From: Planctomycetota bacterium
Lineage (GTDB): Bacteria; Planctomycetota; JAJSAM01; JAJVHW01
DNA: 64,000 nt
Direction of reading: 5' to 3'
NCBI GenBank assembly: GCA_965248445.1
Contig: CBDFJG010000002.1
Location: 352,001 to 416,000 of the forward strand
The position numbers and the translations under genes were made by a program. A model generated the notes under the pieces. The model was not told the origin of the DNA and did no database searches. It saw only the letters and a program-made list of their open reading frames with translations. How positions within the stretch are numbered: position 1 is the stretch's first letter; each line of letters starts with the position of its first letter. Below are positions 27 through 12,935 of the stretch, one piece after another.

Positions 27-209
27 GTGTACTTCCTCGAGTGCGCGCGGGACTTCCCCGGCGTCGAGCGTCCAGACAAGCACATCCGCAACCGCACGGT
101 CCGCGACGGGCTGAGCACGGTGCTTGACGCGCTCGCGCGGGCCGAGGGCGAGGTGGAGCTGCTCCGCGGTGCGCTCACGACAGACGTTGAGGAACACGCG
201 GTCGCGTGA
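27..209 (+). CDS. Phage-like hypothetical protein (may start before the window)
   Basis: First of a chain of ORFs coupled by 4-nt GTGA/ATGA overlaps. Confidence 0.5.
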   Translation: MYFLECARDFPGVERPDKHIRNRTVRDGLSTVLDALARAEGEVELLRGALTTDVEEHAVA

Positions 210-556
210 GCACACTCCCGCCCTGCCACCGCCCCCGCGACTGCCCGCTCTGCGGGAAGGCCGCGATCCGCGCAGGTCGGAACCGTGCCGGCGTGCAGCG
301 GTATCGGCTGAAGTGCGCGTGCGACCGCCCCGCGGAACCACCGCTCCCAACCGACTGCCCGCAGTGCGGGGGCAAGCGTTCCATCGTGCGTCACGGCATG
401 CGTCGGGACCGCACCACGCGGTTCCGGTCGAAGTGTGGGCCGTGTGAGAACGAGGCGAGCCGCTTCAGTAGGGCGGGCCAGTCACTGCCGGAGTCGCAGC
501 TGGACCCGTACCTGCAAGTAGCGATGGCGGTGAGCCCGCTGTGGAGGACGCCGTGA
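206..556 (+). CDS. Cys-rich zinc-ribbon protein, phage-like
   Basis: CPLC, CAC, CPQC and CGPC motifs in two similar units; GTGA overlaps at both ends. Confidence 0.6.
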   Translation: MSTLPPCHRPRDCPLCGKAAIRAGRNRAGVQRYRLKCACDRPAEPPLPTDCPQCGGKRSIVRHGMRRDRTTRFRSKCGPCENEASRFSRAGQSLPESQLDPYLQVAMAVSPLWRTP

Positions 557-858
557 CGACCGACCGGGAGATCGACGGGCTGCGCACCAAGCTCCGAGAG
601 GCGAAGCGCGCCCAGGACGACGAATTCGGTCGGCGGCGTCGCGCCGAGAAGGAACGCGATGAACTCGCCGGACACCTCGGCAACGTCGGCAACGTGCTCA
701 TCGAGTTCGGGTTCGACATCGACAAGGAGCGCGCGTGGGCGTTCATCCGACGGCGGCTCACCGACCACGCCAAGTGCCGAGACCAGGCGCAGGAGGTCTC
801 CAACTTGAAAGCGCGAATCCGTGGTCTGCACGCGGCTGCGAACCGGAGGACGCCGTGA
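553..858 (+). CDS. Phage-like coiled-coil hypothetical protein
   Basis: GTG at 553 overlaps the previous stop; GGAGG RBS at 543-547. Confidence 0.55.
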   Translation: MTTDREIDGLRTKLREAKRAQDDEFGRRRRAEKERDELAGHLGNVGNVLIEFGFDIDKERAWAFIRRRLTDHAKCRDQAQEVSNLKARIRGLHAAANRRTP

Positions 859-1106
859 GCCGCCCTGCGAAACGCCTCCCCGTCCCCGGGCTCGAGGGCA
901 CCTGGTGGCGCTGCCCCGTGCACGGCCTGACCCAGGACACCCACATGCTGCGCGGCATCGAGGACGACGAGTTCCACGCCTACTACTACTGCCGCGTCGA
1001 CACCTGTTCTCGCGAGCTGGAGGACGTCCAGGGCGCCGGCCGCGACATCCGGAAGATCTCGCACTGGAACAGGCCCCCGAAGACGAAGGGAGCCCTCGCG
1101 TCGTGA
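855..1106 (+). CDS. Phage-like hypothetical protein
   Basis: GGAGG upstream; GTGA overlaps at both ends; WWRCPVHG...YYYC. Confidence 0.55.
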   Translation: MSRPAKRLPVPGLEGTWWRCPVHGLTQDTHMLRGIEDDEFHAYYYCRVDTCSRELEDVQGAGRDIRKISHWNRPPKTKGALAS

Positions 1107-1333
1107 GCTGGATCCACATGCGGCCAACCGCTTCCTCGGGTTCTCCACACGCCGACATGCGGAGCCTTGTGGGGGTGTCTGTCGGCGACAATGGAGGGCG
1201 TGTTCAGCGCTTCGACCGACGGCGTTCCGTCTCGTCCGTTCTCCCCTGTGACATCGTGCCCGTTCTGGGTCGCGCTGAACACAGCACGGGGTCGAGAGCG
1301 GGCGGGATGGAGAGCCGGGGAATCCGTCGATGA
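1103..1333 (+). CDS. Hypothetical protein
   Basis: Fits the coupling pattern (GTGA at 1103, ATGA at 1330); no recognisable motif. Confidence 0.35.
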   Translation: MSWIHMRPTASSGSPHADMRSLVGVSVGDNGGRVQRFDRRRSVSSVLPCDIVPVLGRAEHSTGSRAGGMESRGIRR

Positions 1334-1663
1334 GCGCGACGCTTGCGTCTCTTGAGCCCTGCTACGGTGGCCCCGCGCGCGAAGACCTGACGCGCCACAC
1401 GATCACCGACCTGGGTTTCCACAGCCACCTCGTGTACGTGATCTCGGCGCGGTGGCCCGATGAGCGCGGGGTCGTCTGTAGCTATGTCGGCATGACCCGT
1501 CGGCAATGGTGGCGGATCTCGGCGCACATCGGGAAGGGGTGGGAGGGCAAGACGCTATTGCTCGCGGCAGAAGCGGCAGGCGCGATGCTCTGGGTGGACG
1601 TCTACACCGAGACCCGCCACCGCTGCGTGCGCTACCTTGAAGCCGCACTCATCGACGCGCTAG

Positions 1664-3332
1664 CCGCATCTGTTCACGAGACGTCGCGATGACGGTGCTT
1701 TCGGAGTCCACAGGGTCAGATCTTGGCCAGGCGAGGGCGGATGCTGTCGTCGTTGCCACAAGGGCAACGCGAGTGAGCGGCCGAAACGGCGCGGATTCTG
1801 CGGTGTGGGCAGACCGTAGGCCGGGCGGTGGTGTGGCGGACGGCGCGGCGGGACGTCAGGTCGGCTTCGGGGATGCCAGCAGTCGTTGCGCGCAGCGCTC
1901 GAAGACGTGCTGCCAGGGCCACGACGAGGACATCGAGACCCAGATCCGGCGCGTCGTGATCCGCACGAGCGCGCCGATCTTGAGCAGCCGCAGGCGGATC
2001 GTGCCGGCTTGCGCACGCGCCATCTCGGTGCCGGCGAGACCGATGCGTCGCAGCGCACAGGTCAGGACGTAGGCCATGGCCGACATGGCCATCCGCACGG
2101 CGTTGCCCTGCATCGTGTGCACCGACAGACGGGTGCCGAAGAGCTCGAGCTGCTGCTCCTTGATGCGATTCTCCGCCTCGCCCCGGGCGCAGTAGAGCTG
2201 CTCGTAGAGACGCTTGCTGCTCCAGCTACGAGGCGGCAGATTGGTCACCACGAAGCGGGGATTGCGCTTGCCGCCCGGCAGGTGCTCGGCCTTGGCGACC
2301 ACGCGACGCCTCTGGCTCCAGCTCCCCAGCGTGGTCCAGGCAAAGTCGCGAAAGACCCGGGCTGCTCGGCCGGTCTGCACGGCACGGGCTGCGGCCTCAT
2401 CGAGCGCGTCTTCGACGTGTCGCTCAAGGCGCTCATTGCGCGCCATGCCCAGCAGGTAGAAGTGGCCGGCGGCCTCGCACCAGGCCATCAGCTCCTCGCG
2501 GCAAAAGCCCGAGTCTGCGCGCACGAGCACCTTGGCCCGGGGCCAGCGGCGCCGCAGACGTAAGACCAGCGCACGGAGCTCGTCCACGACTCCGCGCGCG
2601 GGATCTCTGTCAGCGGTCTGGAGCCGAGCGAGCAAGAGGTGCTCGCCGCAGAAGACGTACAGCGGCAGGTAGCAGTAGTGCCCGTAGTAGCCGTGGAAGA
2701 AGCGGCCCTCCTGCCGGCCGTGCAGCCGCACGTCGGAGTGGTCCAGGTCCAGCACGAGCAGGCCCGGATCCTCCGGCCCCATGGCCTCGCAGAAGACGTC
2801 GCTGAGCACGCTGTCCACGCGCTCCTGGTCCATCTCGATCTTGGCGTAGCGCGTCTGTGCCGTGGCGCCGAGCTGCGTGGTCTCGAGCCGCGAGAGCGTC
2901 GGGTGCGTGGCCAGAGCACCCTCGCGCTTGCCGCACGCCGCGGCAAACAGCGGGTCCTTGCCGACATGGTCGTGGTCCACCAGATCCTCGTAGCCCGCGC
3001 ACAGCCCGAAGACCCGCTGACGCAGCATCTGGCCGACCGTGTGCTCGACCCGACGCGGGTCCCGGTGGTCCCCGAAGCAGCGCGCAAACCGCGAGAGCAG
3101 ATCGATGCGACGATCGACCCGCTCGAGCAGCAGCACGCCCCCGTCGCTCGTCACGGTACCGGCGTCGAAGCGCGTCACCGCGGTGCGTCCACAGATGCCC
3201 GCGAAGAGGGTCCCCTGCGGGCTACAGTCTGTCGTCATCGGGCCGGCGCTCCTGTCGGTGCAAGTACTAGCGAGTACGAGCACTTAGACAGACGACGGCC
3301 CGCTCAGATTCCCGGCTGGTGAACGATTCGGG
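1664..3332 (-). mobile_element. IS1380-family element, type A copy 1 (1669 bp)
   Basis: Inverted match to 14216-15884; imperfect TIRs CCCGAATCGTTCAC / CCGCATCTGTTCAC; CTAG on both sides (1660-1663, 3333-3336). Confidence 0.95.
1856..3238 (-). CDS. IS1380-family DDE transposase
   Basis: TSDGGVLLL, LDLDHSD, HGRQEG.FFHGYY..YCYLPL, VRADSGF, YCARGEAENRIKE; ATG 3238 preferred. Confidence 0.95.
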   Translation of the reverse strand: MTTDCSPQGTLFAGICGRTAVTRFDAGTVTSDGGVLLLERVDRRIDLLSRFARCFGDHRDPRRVEHTVGQMLRQRVFGLCAGYEDLVDHDHVGKDPLFAAACGKREGALATHPTLSRLETTQLGATAQTRYAKIEMDQERVDSVLSDVFCEAMGPEDPGLLVLDLDHSDVRLHGRQEGRFFHGYYGHYCYLPLYVFCGEHLLLARLQTADRDPARGVVDELRALVLRLRRRWPRAKVLVRADSGFCREELMAWCEAAGHFYLLGMARNERLERHVEDALDEAAARAVQTGRAARVFRDFAWTTLGSWSQRRRVVAKAEHLPGGKRNPRFVVTNLPPRSWSSKRLYEQLYCARGEAENRIKEQQLELFGTRLSVHTMQGNAVRMAMSAMAYVLTCALRRIGLAGTEMARAQAGTIRLRLLKIGALVRITTRRIWVSMSSSWPWQHVFERCAQRLLASPKPT

Positions 3333-3583
3333 CTAGCGCCGTGCGAGAACACGCAGAACCACCCGCCCTCTGGCGCGGTTCCATGCGCTCACCGCAGGCC
3401 GTTGGAGATCGCCTTCCCCCGCCTCTACGAGATCGAGTCGTGGGGCGGAGCGATAGAGCATGTGCGCGCCCAGCGGCTCAAGTCGGTCCAGGGGCGGGTC
3501 GCTCGCCTGTCCGATCGCGACTACGAGTCCTTCCTCGTGTGGCTGCGTCGGCACCACCAGGAGCGCGCGAGGGAGCGCGCCGG

Positions 3584-4234
3584 GTGACACGCCAGTGGAT
3601 AGCCCTCAGCACCGGGTTTCCGATGGACCTGGAGACCCTGACCCTCCCCGTAGAACACCGCTATTCCTGGGTAGTTCTGCTGACGATTTCGAAACGAGAG
3701 GGCTGGAACGGGACCGTGAACGGGACAGTCATCGCCCCCCTACTGGAGGCGTTTGCGGGGCTCTCCAAGCGTAGACAGGGTGTGTTCTTTCGCGCCCTGA
3801 CTGCCCTTGGTTGGGTGGAACAGGTTGGCCCTAACTACGTGATCCAGAAATGGGATAGGTGGCAGAAGGATCCGGGATCTCCGGCTCGAGCGAAGAAGGC
3901 GCGGGACAAGAAACGTCACGGAAGCGCGCGTGACGAAAATCGTTCGGAAGTAGCTCTGACAGGGACAGGGACAGGGACAGAACCCCCCCCTCCCCCTAAC
4001 GAGGGGGAGGCCCGTCGCTTCGCTCTTGCCTGGGCCGGCTCCCGGTCCCGCTTGAAGGACGGCCGGCTGAAGGACCTGGCATCGGCCGTGCACCGAGATC
4101 GCGCTGCCGAGTCATCGGGGAGCCGCTCGATCGACTGGGTAAACCAGCGTCGCCGCATCAAGACCGAGGACCCGAGCGGCTTCATCAGCACCGAGAGGAT
4201 GCTCGGCCGTGCTGCCCGAAGGGCCGCGCCGTGA
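3584..4234 (+). CDS. Putative phage replication initiator / replisome-organizer-like protein
   Basis: GTGA overlap with upstream gene; N-terminal WIAL motif, KWDRWQ, basic ARAKKARDKKR helix, then TGTGTGTEPPPPP linker typical of this class. Confidence 0.55.
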   Translation: MTRQWIALSTGFPMDLETLTLPVEHRYSWVVLLTISKREGWNGTVNGTVIAPLLEAFAGLSKRRQGVFFRALTALGWVEQVGPNYVIQKWDRWQKDPGSPARAKKARDKKRHGSARDENRSEVALTGTGTGTEPPPPPNEGEARRFALAWAGSRSRLKDGRLKDLASAVHRDRAAESSGSRSIDWVNQRRRIKTEDPSGFISTERMLGRAARRAAP

Positions 4235-4380
4235 CGCTCCGAGACGAGATCGTCGCGTTGCGCGCACTGCTCAGCGACGCCATGGACGCGCTGTCGGCAG
4301 AGTGTCAACCTGTTGAAACCCCCGAGTGCCAGTCTGACGGACTGGCAGGAAGAAGGGCGTCAGGCGCGGGGCGTGGTTGA
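4231..4380 (+). CDS. Small hypothetical protein ending the phage-like operon
   Basis: GTGA overlap; MTLRDEIVALRALLSDAMDAL... Confidence 0.35.
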   Translation: MTLRDEIVALRALLSDAMDALSAECQPVETPECQSDGLAGRRASGAGRG

Positions 4381-4408
4381 CAACCGTGCCCCGCGCGTGG
4401 AGCCTGTG

Positions 4409-4480
4409 TGGAGCCGACGGGAATCGAACCCGCGAACCTGACTTTCCAAGTGTCTGGCGCCTACCAAGGGTCTCGGCCCC
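4409..4480 (-). ncRNA. tRNA-like RNA with Ala/tmRNA-type acceptor stem and degenerate D and anticodon arms
   Basis: GGGGCCG/CGGCTCC-A acceptor with G3.U70; T-arm GCGGG-TTCGATT-CCCGT; central loop ACTTGGAAA; no encoded CCA. Confidence 0.6.
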
Positions 4481-4539: not shown

Positions 4540-4667
4540 GATGGAGAGCGGACATGAGCGACGACGAGCCAGATGAGGATCGTCCGCTCAAGATCCACGG
4601 CGATTGGAAGGAAGCCCTGCGGAAGGGCGGGACGTGTCAACGACTTTGAGACACCGCGTCTTCGAGT

Positions 4668-5696
4668 TTAGTGAGCAGCCTCCTGTGTCGCAGTCTCCAG
4701 CGCCGCGAGTTCCCGGGCCGGCGGGTTGATCCACGTCTCGGTCGGCAGAGCCGGCGGCGTCGGCGCACGGCGCACGAAGCGCTCGGGATGCGCCGCGTAC
4801 GCGGCATCGAGCACGACCGAGCGCGCGGCGACGGCCGCTTCGGCGCGGCCGTAGTGCACGGTCTCGGGCGTCAGCAGCCCGAGACTCGAGTGACGATGCT
4901 CGCGGTTGTACCAGTGGAAAAAGGCGCGGCAGTGCGCCCGCGCGTCCTCGATGCAGCCGAAGCGCGCTGGGAAGTCCGGCCGGTACTTCAGCGTGCGGAA
5001 TTGGCTCTCGGAAAACGGATTGTCATTCGACGTGTACGGCCGGCTGTGCGACTTCGTCACGCCGAGATCGGCGAGCAGAAAGGCCACCGGCTTGCTGATC
5101 ATCGGCGGCCCCCGATCGGAGTGGATCGTGAGCTGCTCCGCCGCGATCCCCTGCTTCTCGCAGGACTGCTCGATGAGTGCCGTCGCCAGCGCACCGCTCT
5201 CGCAGTCCGCCAGCATCCAGCCCACGACGTTGCGGGAGTAGATGTCGAGCACGACGTAGAGATAGAAGTAGCTCCACTTCACCGGGCCGCGGAGCTTGGT
5301 GATGTCCCAGCTCCAGACCTGGTTCGGGGAGGTCGCGAGGAGCTCGGGCTTCTTGTACGCGGGATGACGCAGCTGGTTGCGGCGCTCACGCACAGCACCA
5401 GCCGCACCGAGGATGCGGTACATCGTGCGCACCGAGCACAGGTAGCGTCCCTCGTCGAGCAGGATCGCCCACGCCGCAAGCGGTGACAGATCGCAGAAGC
5501 GCTCCTCGCTCAGCACCGCGAGTACGGTAAGACGCTCGTCGATCGTGAGGGCGCGCGGCGAGCGCCGGCGCGGCTGCTGGGGCCGGGGGCACGTGCGTGC
5601 CGTTCGGCGCCGATAGAGCGTGGCGCGCGTGACTCCGAGCGCGCGGCACGCGGGGGCGACGCCCACGCGTCCCCCCAGCTCCTCCGCCGCAATCAC
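4668..5696 (-). CDS. IS3-family transposase OrfB (rve/DDE)
   Basis: PNQVWSWDIT, LDIYSR.VVGW, IHSDRG, DNPFSESQFRTLK; GTG overlaps the OrfA stop. Confidence 0.92.
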   Translation of the reverse strand: MIAAEELGGRVGVAPACRALGVTRATLYRRRTARTCPRPQQPRRRSPRALTIDERLTVLAVLSEERFCDLSPLAAWAILLDEGRYLCSVRTMYRILGAAGAVRERRNQLRHPAYKKPELLATSPNQVWSWDITKLRGPVKWSYFYLYVVLDIYSRNVVGWMLADCESGALATALIEQSCEKQGIAAEQLTIHSDRGPPMISKPVAFLLADLGVTKSHSRPYTSNDNPFSESQFRTLKYRPDFPARFGCIEDARAHCRAFFHWYNREHRHSSLGLLTPETVHYGRAEAAVAARSVVLDAAYAAHPERFVRRAPTPPALPTETWINPPARELAALETATQEAAH

Positions 5697-6196
5697 GTGT
5701 CGCTCCCGCTCGTCTCGGGCATCTCGATGCCCAGCAGCCGTGAGACTTTTCGCTGCACGTCGATGATCACCTCGGCCGTCTCGAGCCGCTTCTCGAGACG
5801 GGCGACTTCGCGCTCGAGCTGCTCGTTGCGCTTCTTGAGCGCACGGTCCGGATCGGGCTTGGGACCACGCCGCTTGGGCGAGAGCGCCTCGAGCTGGCCC
5901 TGGTCCCGCGCGCGCCGCCACGTCAACAAGTGCGAGGAGTACAGCCCCTCACGGCGCAAGAGAGCGCCGATCTCGCCGGGCTTCGTGCACGCGTCCGCCG
6001 CCTCGATGATCCGTAGCTTGTACGCGGCGCCAAAGCGCCGCCGCGAGGCGCGCGGCACGACCTCGGGGTCGCGCACCCCAACGTCCCCCGGGCCGCGCGC
6101 CCCGGGGGAGCCCCCTCCGCCTCGATCGCGCTCGCTATGCTCGCCCTCCCTCGGCTCCGGGATCTCCCCCGGCGCTGTGTTGTGGTTGTTCGTCAT
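5693..6196 (-). CDS. IS3-family OrfA (HTH + leucine zipper)
   Basis: RRRFGAAYKLRII, LLRREGLYSSHLLTWR, coiled coil; GGAGG RBS. Confidence 0.9.
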   Translation of the reverse strand: MTNNHNTAPGEIPEPREGEHSERDRGGGGSPGARGPGDVGVRDPEVVPRASRRRFGAAYKLRIIEAADACTKPGEIGALLRREGLYSSHLLTWRRARDQGQLEALSPKRRGPKPDPDRALKKRNEQLEREVARLEKRLETAEVIIDVQRKVSRLLGIEMPETSGSDT

Positions 6197-6273
6197 CGCT
6201 GGTTCCTCCACCGCCCTGCACAGTAATCATCCGTGGGGTCGGTGTCTCAGCCACGTTGGCACAGAGGGGGGAC

Positions 6274-6866
6274 TCAAGACCCCGCCGCCGCCAACCGACG
6301 ACGACGAGCCTGAGACTGAGGGCTCGGAAGGTGCTTCCCGTAAGCCGAAAGAACCGCCTGCCTGACCTGTTCTCCGTCGTCGTCTCGGCGGTGGTTGTAA
6401 CGGAAGGTCGCGGCGCCCAGGTACGTGGGCAGGTGGCAGGGCGAGACCGAGTGCCACGTCCCGTAGACCGACCTGCGGAAGATCCCGAAAAAGCCCTCGA
6501 TTGAGTTCGTCGTGGTCAGTTCGCGAGGGCCGCCCGGTCTGCGACTCTCCCACCGCGCGTACTCGTTCGCATCGTGGTTCACGGTGCGGTGGTCGGCGAA
6601 GTACCAGGCCAGGCGCTTGTAGACGTTCGCGCCGTCGGTGTGCAGCGTCGCCCACGCGGCCACGTTCGAGAACAGCACCTTGCGGAGCGACTTTGCCGTC
6701 ACGTCCGTCGTGATCGCGGCGCGCACGTCGCCTCCACGCGAGAGCATCCCAATGACCGGGATGGTGCGCCCCTTCGCCTCCCGCCTCTTCCACCGCTTGC
6801 CGGTCCGATACGTGCGGCGGCGCCGTTTTCGGCCTCCGACCCACAGTTCGTCGGCGGACGTGACTA
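6274..6866 (-). pseudogene. IS1595-family transposase, N-terminally truncated
   Basis: ADELWVGG...VIGMLSRGG...LHTDG..VY...HRTVNH...TNSIEGFF..FRR...GTWHSVS..HL..YL...FRYN; in-frame stop just upstream and no zinc-ribbon/HTH N-terminus. Confidence 0.8.
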
Positions 6867-8085: not shown

Positions 8086-9585
8086 GTAACCGTTCACCCC
8101 TTGACAGCGTGTGAGCCTCAGCGTGCGACGGGCAGCGGGACCATGACGGGCGGGTCGGCGCCGGTGAGGTGCGCGGCGACCGAGTCGGCGAGGAAGTCGA
8201 AGACTTGGTCGCCACGGCGTCGCAGCGTGGCCGCGGCGGTCAACACGCGCTCGGCGAAGCGGAGTCCGCGAGCGGACTGGCTTCCGAAGGAGCCCTTGCG
8301 CCAGAGCACCGCTTTGCGGACCGCGCGCTCGGCGGCGTTGTTCGTCGGACTCACGTCCTGGGTCCGCGCATAGGTGAAGAGGGCGACCACGCGGGGGCGC
8401 AGATGGTTGGCCAGAGCCGAGTCGTCGTTCGCGATCAGTCGCTCGAGCCGTCCGCGCAGCACAGCGGCTTCGCCTTGCAGCCGGTCACGGTCGCCGTGCT
8501 CACCGAAGAGCCGGTAGCTGCGCATGACCGACTGCGCGATCATGACGCCCTTGTTGCCGAAGCGGCGATGTCCTCGCGGGCCTTCGGCCAGCGCACGGAA
8601 GGCGCGCTCGATGTGCGCCCAGCAGAGCTGGCGGCGGGCAAGTGGGTGTGACTCGTAGGCACCCATCCGGTCGCTGATCACCGTGCCACCGAAGCGCCGC
8701 CCGATCAGCCGCCCTTTCGCCTTGGCACTGCGGCGGCGATCGATCCCGAAGGCTGTGGCGTGCTCGCTCTCCGCCGCCCACAGCCAGCACACCCGGCCCC
8801 GTTCCTTCCACGACGTCTCGTCCACGTTGGCTCGCAGCGACGTGCGGACTGCCCCGAGGGCTTCGAGGTACGACGAGTGCAGAGCGTCACTGAGCCGACG
8901 CTCACAGTCGCTGATCTTGCCCAGCGACATCTTCACACCGAAGATCTCACCGAGCAGCCGCTGCGTCTCCCGCACGCTCACGCGGTACACGCCGCGCAGC
9001 GCGCCGGCAAGTGTGGTCAGCCGCGGACCGAAGGCCCCGGTCGGCACGCCATCGGGCAGGACCGCCGTCGTGACCGCACGACAGCGCCGGCACCGCGCCT
9101 TGTGCAGCCGGTGCTCCCGCACCGTGACGAGCACGCGCGGGAGCACCGTCACCTGGTGCCGGTACGGATCGCCGATGCCCTGCTCGAGATCGTCGTGTCC
9201 GCACGCGTCGCAGAGGTCGGGACGGTGCTCCTTGGTCTCATCGACGTTGGACGGATCCACCAGCTCGCGCGCCGTGCCCTCATGGCCCGGCTGTCCGCCC
9301 TGCTGGCGACCGCTACGCGGCCTTCGGCCGCGACGGCGCTTGGACCACGCCGGGTCCGACGACGGAGGCCTCGAGCTGTTGCGGGAGTCACGCTTCAGAC
9401 GCGACTCGAGCTCGTCGATGCGGCGCAGATGCTTCGCTTCGCGACGCTCCAGCTCCTCGATCCAGGCCAGAAGGCCCTCGACCATCGCCCGCAGATCCTC
9501 GTCCTGCCGCTCGCCCACAACCTCTTGATCGACCGATGGCCGAACGATCTGGATCCTGGCTCGCGACGAAGGGGTGAACGGTTAC
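8086..9585 (-). mobile_element. IS66-family single-ORF element (ISBst12-like) A, 1500 bp
   Basis: 17-bp perfect TIR GTAACCGTTCACCCCTT; no target duplication. Confidence 0.93.
8118..9518 (-). CDS. IS66-family transposase
   Basis: NSSRPPSSD, GGQPGHEG, C..C zinc finger, VDETSW, QLCWAH, TNNAAERAVR. Confidence 0.95.
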   Translation of the reverse strand: MGERQDEDLRAMVEGLLAWIEELERREAKHLRRIDELESRLKRDSRNSSRPPSSDPAWSKRRRGRRPRSGRQQGGQPGHEGTARELVDPSNVDETKEHRPDLCDACGHDDLEQGIGDPYRHQVTVLPRVLVTVREHRLHKARCRRCRAVTTAVLPDGVPTGAFGPRLTTLAGALRGVYRVSVRETQRLLGEIFGVKMSLGKISDCERRLSDALHSSYLEALGAVRTSLRANVDETSWKERGRVCWLWAAESEHATAFGIDRRRSAKAKGRLIGRRFGGTVISDRMGAYESHPLARRQLCWAHIERAFRALAEGPRGHRRFGNKGVMIAQSVMRSYRLFGEHGDRDRLQGEAAVLRGRLERLIANDDSALANHLRPRVVALFTYARTQDVSPTNNAAERAVRKAVLWRKGSFGSQSARGLRFAERVLTAAATLRRRGDQVFDFLADSVAAHLTGADPPVMVPLPVAR

Positions 9586-12029: not shown

Positions 12030-12935
12030 GTGAACCAACAACGACGACACACGGGACGGCACGCGCCGTCCGTGCGAGGGCCAATGCACACGATATACGA
12101 CGATCACGAAGCGAACGACTCTGACGAACGCGTCTGGGAGGGAGACCACCTGCCGGACGAACTGACGCCGTCCTTCAACGGAGGGCGGCAGGAGAAGAAG
12201 TGGATCGAGGACGCCCTCGGCGACTTCTATTCCGACGGCTGGCTCGACGACGTCACCTTCCGCGTGAAGGGCGGCAAGGAGGCGACTGTCTACTGCTGCG
12301 CAGCGCACCCCTCGACGGGTTTCGAACTGCTGGCAGCCAAGGTAATGCGCCCGCGGATGTTCCGCGCGATGAAGAACGACTCGCTCTACCGCATCGGACG
12401 CACGACGCTCGACGCGGAGTCCAAGACCGTGCTCGACCATCGCAGCATCCGCGCGCTCGAGAAGGGCACGCGCTACGGCCGCAAGCTGGCGACGGCATCC
12501 TGGTGCCAGCACGAATTCAAGGCTCTGCAGCACCTGCACGCAGCCGGCGCAGACGTGCCGAAGCCGCTCGCGTGCGCGCCGAACGCTCTCCTGATGGAGT
12601 TCATCGGCGACCGCGACGGCGCGGCGCCCATCCTGCACTCGGTGCGGCTCACGCCCGCCGAGGCACAACCGCTACTCGACCGCATGCTCGAGAACGTCGA
12701 GATCATGCTCCGCGGCTACCGCGTACACGGCGACCTGTCCGCCTACAACGTCCTGTACTGGGAGGGCGAGGCGCGGATCATCGACTTCCCCCAGACGATC
12801 GACGCGCTGCGGCACCCCGAGGCGTACCGACTCTTCGCGCGGGACATCGACCGGCTGTGCCGTTACTTCGGGCGGCAGGGCATCGCCTGCGATCCCGACG
12901 GCATCGCCCACGAAATCTGGGAGACGGTTATGTAG
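12030..12935 (+). CDS. RIO1-family atypical kinase/ATPase (alternative start 12084)
   Basis: GGKEATVY, AAKV, W..HEF..L..L, VPKP, LLMEFIG, VHGDLSAYNVL, IIDFPQ. Confidence 0.9.
   Translation: MNQQRRHTGRHAPSVRGPMHTIYDDHEANDSDERVWEGDHLPDELTPSFNGGRQEKKWIEDALGDFYSDGWLDDVTFRVKGGKEATVYCCAAHPSTGFELLAAKVMRPRMFRAMKNDSLYRIGRTTLDAESKTVLDHRSIRALEKGTRYGRKLATASWCQHEFKALQHLHAAGADVPKPLACAPNALLMEFIGDRDGAAPILHSVRLTPAEAQPLLDRMLENVEIMLRGYRVHGDLSAYNVLYWEGEARIIDFPQTIDALRHPEAYRLFARDIDRLCRYFGRQGIACDPDGIAHEIWETVM

Follow-up and report, generated by a model that had tools for sequence, protein, structure and literature searches.

A compact alanine-type tRNA with a proline anticodon in a truncated IS1595 element, and mismatched tRNAs as cargo of related elements

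A 72-nt RNA gene on the minus strand at positions 4409-4480 of a stretch of Planctomycetota DNA (the window, 64,000 nucleotides in all) is a real feature: a compact tRNA that combines a full bacterial alanine acceptor with a proline anticodon. The gene sits in a truncated IS1595 element within a prophage remnant. Related IS1595 elements carry tRNAs whose body and anticodon disagree, and in those that carry a UGG anticodon the cognate codon, CCA, is fixed at particular sites of the transposase. Our main reading, to which we assign a probability of roughly 60%, is that the RNA is, or recently was, processed, charged with alanine and used to read CCA codons, and that it would thereby gate the output of the element's own genes. 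The features of this region are as follows.

4409-4480, minus strand: compact tRNA gene with alanine-identity acceptor, 3-bp D stem, UGG loop, canonical T arm and no encoded CCA
4356-4404, minus strand: long hairpin with 24-nt arms, a few bases past the tRNA 3′ end; not called by the terminator scan
4554-6365, plus strand: 55-aa small ORF typical of the IS1595 clade, divergent from the tRNA and split by an IS insertion
4628-6268, minus strand: IS3-type (rve) element, multi-copy, a later insertion; Pfam rve and HTH_Tnp_1, 3-bp target duplication
6274-6855, minus strand: truncated IS1595-family transposase; Pfam DDE_Tnp_IS1595, E 3.4e-20, DDE part only
4295-4317, plus strand: tentative right end of the IS1595 element; its inner 8 letters are common to the ends at loci L455 and L457
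6878-6903, minus strand: tentative, degenerate left end of the IS1595 element; first and last letters resemble the L455 and L457 ends by eye
27-4234, plus strand: prophage-like early/replication module that hosts the IS1595 element and begins outside the window, at C2:348715

Sequence and fold of the RNA

The gene has the letters given in the original prediction, which described a chimeric tRNA-like RNA, and most of that structural description stands. The acceptor forms 7 of 7 pairs with G3.U70 and an A73 discriminator, the T arm is canonical as claimed (a 5-pair stem and a canonical loop), position 8 is indeed A, and the loop is centred on TGG, in the form CU-UGG-AA with U33 present; UGG is a proline anticodon. 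The D stem had been called weak. It is short, at 3 bp, but it closes a UGGU tetraloop and covaries in relatives, which is more than weakness would allow. The word chimeric fits an alanine body with a proline anticodon and does not fit a union of tmRNA and tRNA. The variable region is short, the anticodon arm is imperfect (4 of 6 pairs), and the 3′ tail reads CAC, so CCA is not encoded. A GGA (serine) register of the loop was tried and rejected, since 2 pairs form in it and 5 of 6 form with UGG.

Identity was assessed against the alanine and proline sets given in the available part of PMC9976931. The acceptor positions are G1-C72, G2-C71, G3.U70, G4-C69 and A73, so that the bacterial alanine set of A73, G2-C71, G3.U70 and G4-C69 is complete; G20, also an alanine element, has no assignable position in the shortened D loop. 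Bacterial proline identity calls for G72 and G37 besides G35, G36 and A73, and the RNA has C72 and A37.

The ARAGORN and Rfam checks proposed in the original prediction gave a divided answer: the tRNA-like ends are real, but ARAGORN at default settings makes no call anywhere in the 64-kb window and both Rfam models stay below their cut-offs. With a lowered threshold, ARAGORN reports a ‘possible pseudogene tRNA-Pro(tgg)’. The Rfam tmRNA model (RF00023) gives 36.4 bits (cut-off 47) and aligns the ends alone; the tRNA model (RF00005) gives 24.8 bits (cut-off 29), and its 48 host tRNA matches score 49.8-76.8 bits. The marks of a canonical tRNA, namely U8, a standard D arm, at least 29 bits and an ARAGORN call, are absent. 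An acceptor-plus-T-arm test nonetheless found 1 match in the window versus 0 in 30 base-shuffled windows. Overall folding energy is unremarkable (z -1.18), and the cloverleaf, at -25.3 kcal/mol, is beaten by 2.6 kcal/mol by an alternative fold that pairs the anticodon (-27.9 kcal/mol).

Relation to tmRNA and to host RNA genes

The original prediction had entertained a mini-tmRNA mimic. Such an RNA would be TLD-only like that of phage DS6A, would accept alanine and bind SmpB, and would disturb trans-translation. That tmRNA is the top Rfam match, together with A8, the alanine acceptor and the phage setting, speaks for this reading, as does the abundance of such RNAs in viral contigs, of which one is published: a generic A8 pattern found at least 117 viral loci, most of them TLD-only-tmRNA-shaped by eye. 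(Elsewhere the pattern hit 16 places, of which 11, including host ssrA, are by eye 3′ ends of whole tmRNAs and were set aside.) Nevertheless, the mimic is not supported and we consider it very improbable. The tmRNA trait that the RNA does have is the alanine acceptor with G3.U70 plus T arm; the tmRNA D-loop motif is absent (a gap in the Rfam alignment), no GGAC precedes the T arm, and a paired D stem and a U33 anticodon loop are present. A TLD model built from 30 TLD-only phage RNAs from viral contigs, DS6A not included, scored 15 held-out TLD RNAs at 48.6-68.9 bits and the RNA at 37.6, level with the host tRNA-Ala genes (35.1-37.5). A8, offered as a tmRNA mark, is not specific to tmRNA and recurs in phage-array tRNAs. 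Even less credible, and largely refuted, is a scar left by integration or a rearranged piece of host ssrA or tRNA-Ala. The first 13 letters of the RNA do look like part of the 3′ region of host tmRNA, and the RNA lies at the prophage edge. However, it is not such a scar, because its closest host match is 23 of 24 letters in the T arm of a tRNA-Asp; the ssrA 3′ end matches at only 22 of 27 letters, both acceptor strands pair fully, and the host retains an intact ssrA (169.5 bits) and three tRNA-Ala genes. The argument that the RNA is no mere att-site fragment was thus borne out, and identity with host ssrA or tRNA-Ala confined to the 3′ end, which the original prediction had named as a warning sign, is not what was found.

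A full tmRNA was also considered and rejected: there is no tag frame or pseudoknot ring, about 32 nt stand where the model has 310, and the score is below the cut-off. Separately, the viral-contig loci L033-L149 and L197-L221, as a lower bound, represent a large and mostly unannotated family of 63-90-nt TLD-only tmRNA-like RNAs.

Genetic setting and genomic copies

An earlier lead to IS1595 proved right: an IS1595 transposase (family name from Pfam PF12762) adjoins the RNA. The window's transposase lacks its N-terminal zinc-ribbon/HTH half, has an in-frame stop just upstream and contains no CCA codons. CCA stands at codons 6 and 32 of the small ORF, which is interrupted after codon 25 in the window copy and intact in the copy on contig C4. 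Its LKI-x-G-x-W-type motif also adjoins the transposase in related loci (5 in one set, 9 in another), and kinship of the small ORFs means a match to this motif: BLASTP gave no alignment with the small ORF of L492, Pfam and PHROG gave no match, and a search over 17 genomes returned noise only. The IS3-type insertion parts the tRNA from the transposase in the window copy only; the uninterrupted form stands at C4, and 3 runs show it in loose contig ends at 4627.

The boundaries of the element are tentative. The candidate right end lies in a 24-bp exact repeat (window 4295-4318 and G000:C4:1956069-1956092), and no IS1595 transposase occurs in the 12 kb around the second site; no target duplication was found at the candidate degenerate ends. 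The hairpin beyond the tRNA could be a terminator or processing signal. No sigma-70 promoter consensus matched for the RNA, no synthetase is encoded among 17 flanking ORFs scanned, and no toxin or antitoxin gene was recognised next to it. The prophage-like module is repeated at C3 and C4 and is interrupted in the window by an IS1380-type element at ~1659-3336; matches to DUF5131, Bac_DnaA_C, phrog_2045 and phrog_13608 lie at the start of the window or before it. The window as a whole has a very high IS load (IS1380-type 1659-3336, IS3-type 4628-6268, IS66 8118-9518), each of these elements having dozens of near-identical genomic copies. A RIO1-family kinase gene lies at 12030-12935 (plus strand; Pfam E 1.1e-35).

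An identical second copy of the RNA occurs at G000:C4:1915916-1915987, inside a duplicated segment that is cut by other IS elements on C4; the third copy of the segment ends before the RNA. Of 4 sequencing runs, all from one sample, 3 yield contigs with an unchanged sequence, and the fourth has no coverage of the gene. A relaxed genome-wide scan made 18 calls beyond the ARAGORN set, and by eye the only whole non-canonical tRNAs among them are the two copies of the RNA. The host has three tRNA-Pro genes, which carry C1-G72, one PF01743 gene (CCA-adding/poly(A) family) and one PF04073 editing-domain gene, and CCA is rare at 3.1 per 1000 codons. Nucleotide searches for close homologues returned T-arm matches only in 60 relatives and no match over 80% of the query in phage and plasmid records. 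Elsewhere in the genome, 3′ fragments of tRNA-Cys (G000:C2:559558-559646), tRNA-Asp (C2:702282-702304) and tRNA-Thr (C3:1044621-1044687) are likely old integration scars.

A compact alanine scaffold

The layout of the RNA recurs, column for column, in tRNA-Ala(UGC) genes of phage tRNA arrays (L150, L153, L183, L506). The T arm and 3′ strand of L150 and L183 are identical to those of the RNA, and A.A at the third anticodon-arm column is common to the RNA, L150, L153 and L183. A tetraloop pattern derived from the RNA, with D-stem pairing not required, found 18 viral loci: 8 solitary alanine-type RNAs with non-alanine loops, 2 UGC array members and 8 others. One of the solitary RNAs (L505) adjoins an IS1595 transposase in the same arrangement as in the window and another (L507) adjoins an IS1-family gene; the flanks examined of the other 6 hold no IS1595 and no recognised IS1 gene. 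Among genomes the pattern occurred in 1 of 301 and 1 of 151, both times beside IS1595, the second being L227. A scan of genome contigs gave 6 loci, including L222 and L227, in which a gap of 11 nt separates an alanine-type RNA with an AAG loop from the stop codon of a complete IS1595 transposase. Beside IS1595, the scaffold recurs in L492, L222, L227 and L505.

At least 11 other compact alanine-type RNAs with varied non-alanine anticodons have the same D arm, and ten or more different non-alanine anticodons are found on the scaffold. D-stem pairing is kept at 36 of 42 pairs in 14 sequences (17.9 ± 3.2 when shuffled), and all 4 pairs show double changes in a set of 11 sequences that excludes the RNA itself; the homologue search with covariation analysis that the original prediction called for came out in favour of the D arm. 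No member of the family has a complete anticodon arm (2-5 of 6 pairs). For L507, L514 and L517 the automatic placement of the anticodon was ambiguous, and it was set by eye. A family model (R1) built from 11 sequences without the RNA scored it at 41.2 bits, compared with 33.0 for host tRNA-Ala and 25-40 for held-out TLD RNAs (one at 40.1). This separation is modest, and the RNA was missed at E 1e-6 in a genome search. Because of these R1 scores we place it, provisionally, as a divergent member of the family. The same model found further members at L523, L524, L461:5024-5092 and L503:1391-1456; L523 and L524 have no IS1595 either. No second alanine body with UGG emerged from the pattern and model searches. 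ARAGORN mostly misses this scaffold, calling 5 of 14 solitary members (the RNA not among them), so the compact alanine class (68-72 nt) is likely under-annotated.

Several related loci deserve mention in their own right. At L225:4001-4070 and L507:3501-3568, an alanine-type RNA stands between an IS1-family transposase (assigned by Pfam in L507 and by eye in L225) and a small ORF, an arrangement that suggests that IS1-type elements may carry the same cargo. L226:4001-4072 (minus strand), just upstream of cas9 in a Phycisphaerales MAG, is called Ile(GAU) by ARAGORN yet has a G3.U70 alanine acceptor. Directly after the alanine-type RNA of L523, a 91-nt tRNA with a GUC anticodon (1406-1496, minus strand) is probably another mismatched tRNA.

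Mismatched tRNAs in an IS1595 clade

Mismatched tRNAs were sought in a broad survey of 110 distinct IS1595 loci, 13 of which have a tRNA call within 1.5 kb. De-duplication had removed L296 (its tRNA is still counted) and the C4 copy of the window's locus. Subtracting the window's locus and L258 and L270, both found by RNA pattern, leaves 107 unselected loci. A clear mismatch between body and anticodon was seen in 6 of these 107, versus 0 of 60 control loci of other IS families, a modest contrast that is not decisive alone; 2 more of the 107 carry odd tRNAs. In a prospective set of 18 loci chosen by transposase similarity alone, 10 had mismatched tRNAs, 8 of them with UGG; these eight have a long variable arm, A73 and, by eye, a leucine-type body.

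A tree of 37 transposases places the window's transposase in a clade with 20 others (UFBoot 99). Of these 20, 14 carry a mismatched tRNA in flanks of 3.5-5 kb (less at contig ends); in 11 the anticodon is UGG, borne by a leucine-type body. The window's transposase itself sits on a long branch (1.15), and its placement inside the clade has support of 49-54. Both a clade transposase and a clade small ORF adjoin the RNA. The tRNA of L455 lies between two inverted ends, which an 8-bp duplication flanks in turn. Most bodies in the group are of the Leu, Ser or Ala type. According to the part of PMC11415595 available, recognition by AlaRS and SerRS is independent of the anticodon, that by LeuRS less strictly so; these three synthetases depend on it least. 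The suggestion in the original prediction of a mis-decoding tRNA on a mobile element therefore gains support from the IS1595 linkage and from the mismatched tRNAs of the clade, which are read from sequence and point to, rather than establish, such a role.

The variety of this cargo is considerable. Upstream of the L492 transposase lie tandem mismatched tRNAs (4724-4882, minus strand), a Leu-type with UUA (ochre) and an Ala-type with CUG. At L461:4183-6257, two Ser-type bodies (CCG, GCG) and the Ala-type RNA at 5024-5092 surround one IS1595 transposase. U73 bodies with GAA or an 8-nt loop, resembling the tRNA0 of Mukai and co-workers, occur at L462:3949-4024 and L464:5090-5166. In L491, L495, L496, L501 and L274, the Leu-type UGG tRNAs have C33 or G33 for U33, possibly a damping of decoding. 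Other clade cargo, in L458, L490, L459, L491 and L496, comprises XRE-M78 peptidase, Panacea antitoxin and P63C genes. A search of titles and abstracts, with coverage of few subscription papers, brought up nothing on mismatched tRNAs borne by IS1595 or on the alanine scaffold.

Fixed CCA codons in clade transposases

Among the 11 elements with a UGG tRNA, the proline codon is CCA in 9 of 9 cases at alignment column 69 (an N-terminal I-P-x-A-C context), in 6 of 6 at column 421 and in 5 of 6 at column 206, or 20 of 21 proline codons at the three columns together. At the other eight proline-rich columns, CCA accounts for 6 of 58. Within-gene synonymous shuffles reached the top column in 7 of 20,000 trials and the top-three sum in 0 of 20,000; these figures derive from related sequences and are not exact probabilities. 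Identity among the nine at four-fold sites is 39%, which is near saturation. In three elements without a UGG tRNA, the column-69 proline is CCG twice and CCA once; the latter, L493, has CCA at columns 69 and 421 and no tRNA within 3.5 kb. In other homologues, the residue at the fixed columns is variable. The window's transposase has lost columns 69 and 206 and has TCT at 421.

Elements with other anticodons have no shared fixed column. Two single cases were noted beside this result: CAG occurs once in the L492 transposase, close to the N terminus (the Ala-type tRNA of L492 is CUG), and the L462 transposase has only two TTC codons, both N-terminal. A first codon test saw no case in which a proline codon stands in for a conserved Leu or Ala, and overall CCA shares were similar (39/142 versus 25/102); it skipped proline-majority columns, and its negative outcome is therefore silent on the fixed-column signal. 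A private code that restores conserved leucine is unsupported. The fixed CCA codons could instead reflect an overlapping DNA or RNA signal.

Possible mechanism and alternative explanations

The best reading for the group is that these elements carry tRNAs whose bodies would be charged without regard to the anticodon, as Leu, Ser or Ala, and whose anticodons would read a codon kept in the element's genes. For the RNA in the window, the steps would be end processing and CCA addition, charging with alanine by host AlaRS, and reading of CCA, rare in the host, as alanine; this reading of CCA would then gate the output of the transposase and the small ORF. Two routes can be envisaged, in which decoding is eased at the fixed CCA sites or proline is swapped there for another residue that changes activity. 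We favour easing, since elements with the same anticodon differ in the tRNA body and since the residue at the fixed columns is variable in other homologues. As the window transposase is truncated, any remaining effect would fall only on the small ORF and on bystander CCA codons. More broadly, IS1595 elements may run a private decoding switch, in which a tRNA on an anticodon-blind body is paired with a codon planted in the transposase and the small protein; this extension is tentative and, on present evidence, somewhat against the odds. The same reserve applies to the notion, part of the switch proposal, that the compact alanine scaffold serves as a natural reprogrammable adaptor.

While the group-level signal is strong, the window copy may be a relic: the CCA sites are gone from its transposase, and another fold of the RNA has lower energy than the cloverleaf. 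In its full form this alternative shares the ancestry of our main reading and holds that the copy is non-functional, a drifted tRNA-Ala(UGC) or cargo tRNA in a dead element of a dead prophage. Such drift would have turned UGC into UGG, one letter away in the most similar scaffolds (the phage-array tRNA-Ala genes, some with identical T arm and 3′ strand), and would have lost pair 31-39; the same short step weighs against an alanine-charged reader of CCA. The truncated transposase, the split small ORF, the C4 copy cut by other IS elements, the third copy that stops before the RNA, the more stable alternative fold and the missing promoter consensus all suit a relic, and two identical copies give no sign of selection. 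Yet the D stem and 12 of 12 pairs in the acceptor and T stem are preserved beside a decayed, long-branched transposase, the anticodon is the commonest of the clade, and imperfect anticodon arms are the family norm. We consider a relic unlikely, though far from negligible; the decaying pseudo-tRNA of the original prediction may also describe the window copy. Distinctly unlikely, in our view, is an effector of proteome-wide Pro-to-Ala mistranslation, toxin-like and serving addiction or defence against invaders, that would hit CCA-rich genes harder than host genes. It draws on allo-tRNAs that arrested E. coli growth and occur close to toxin-antitoxin genes (PMC5389517, in part), on the Panacea antitoxin and XRE-M78 cargo of 4 related loci, and on CCA making up 13 of 101 proline codons in neighbouring phage ORFs versus ~5.5% in the host. 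C33 or G33 in several relatives would also fit, as G33 is reported to damp a natural mistranslator (PMC11415595, in part). However, an effector of this kind leaves the target codon at fixed sites of the element's own transposase unexplained, and no toxin or antitoxin gene was recognised beside the RNA.

Significance

Only a small number of natural mistranslating tRNAs are known from bacteria, with no settled purpose. The transposon link of allo-tRNAs was left unexplained by Mukai et al. in the sections available (PMC5389517). In the IS1595 clade, synonymous-codon conservation in the element's own transposase matches the anticodon. If the main reading is true, a selfish element regulates itself through the genetic code; if a decoding switch operates, the transposase would be active or abundant only where the element's tRNA is expressed. 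The 68-72-nt alanine scaffold may also be a useful chassis for suppressor tRNAs.

Comparison with known systems

The nearest precedents are the allo-tRNAs and the irregular tRNA0/1/2 polycistrons (Mukai 2017, PMC5389517; reviewed in PMC7609411, both as available in part), which have in common with the RNA the disagreement of body and anticodon. By analogy the RNA may work as they do, yet it is no member of either group. Allo-tRNAs are defined by an 8/4 or 9/3 acceptor branch and a long variable arm, whereas the RNA has a 7/5 branch, 72 nt and a short variable region; it shares with them a tetraloop D arm, an anticodon unrelated to identity and a mobile-element setting. Some allo-tRNAs have G3.U70, insert alanine and are linked to a transposon ORF and toxin-antitoxin genes, and the U73 7/5 tRNA0 rows resemble L264 by eye (PMC5389517). 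In the supplement parts available, two Ala-type 3′ ends that were searched for are absent, ‘UGG’ appears once and ‘IS1595’ does not appear; the parts of the paper examined contain no self-codon match. Mukai et al. saw no translation with six allo-tRNA(UAU) variants that have weak stems and a transposon link (PMC5389517), which by analogy may be a caution for the RNA.

Natural dual-identity mistranslating tRNAs of bacteria are represented by tRNA-ProX (ProA, ProT, ProN) with ProRSx in Streptomyces and Kitasatospora, described in the available part of PMC10404621. There a proline body bears a non-proline anticodon with ProRSx next door; the RNA is the opposite, an IS cargo with the two halves reversed and no synthetase among the 17 flanking ORFs. 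The DS6A TLD-only tmRNA (PMC4131195, PMC11915505, in part) resembles the RNA in being short and phage-associated, with an alanine acceptor, T arm and A8, and differs in that the RNA lacks the tmRNA D-loop motif and GGAC, has a D stem and an anticodon loop, and scores poorly with the TLD model.

Phage-array tRNA-Ala(UGC) genes with a reduced D arm offer the same compact scaffold and A8; there the tRNA is cognate and stands in arrays of many tRNAs, whereas the RNA is solitary and non-cognate. IS1595-family elements with passenger genes are a known concept. They comprise a DDE_Tnp_IS1595 transposase, short inverted ends and an 8-bp duplication, as seen in L455. The cargo here consists of a mismatched tRNA and a tiny conserved ORF, a combination that the titles and abstracts searched did not show.
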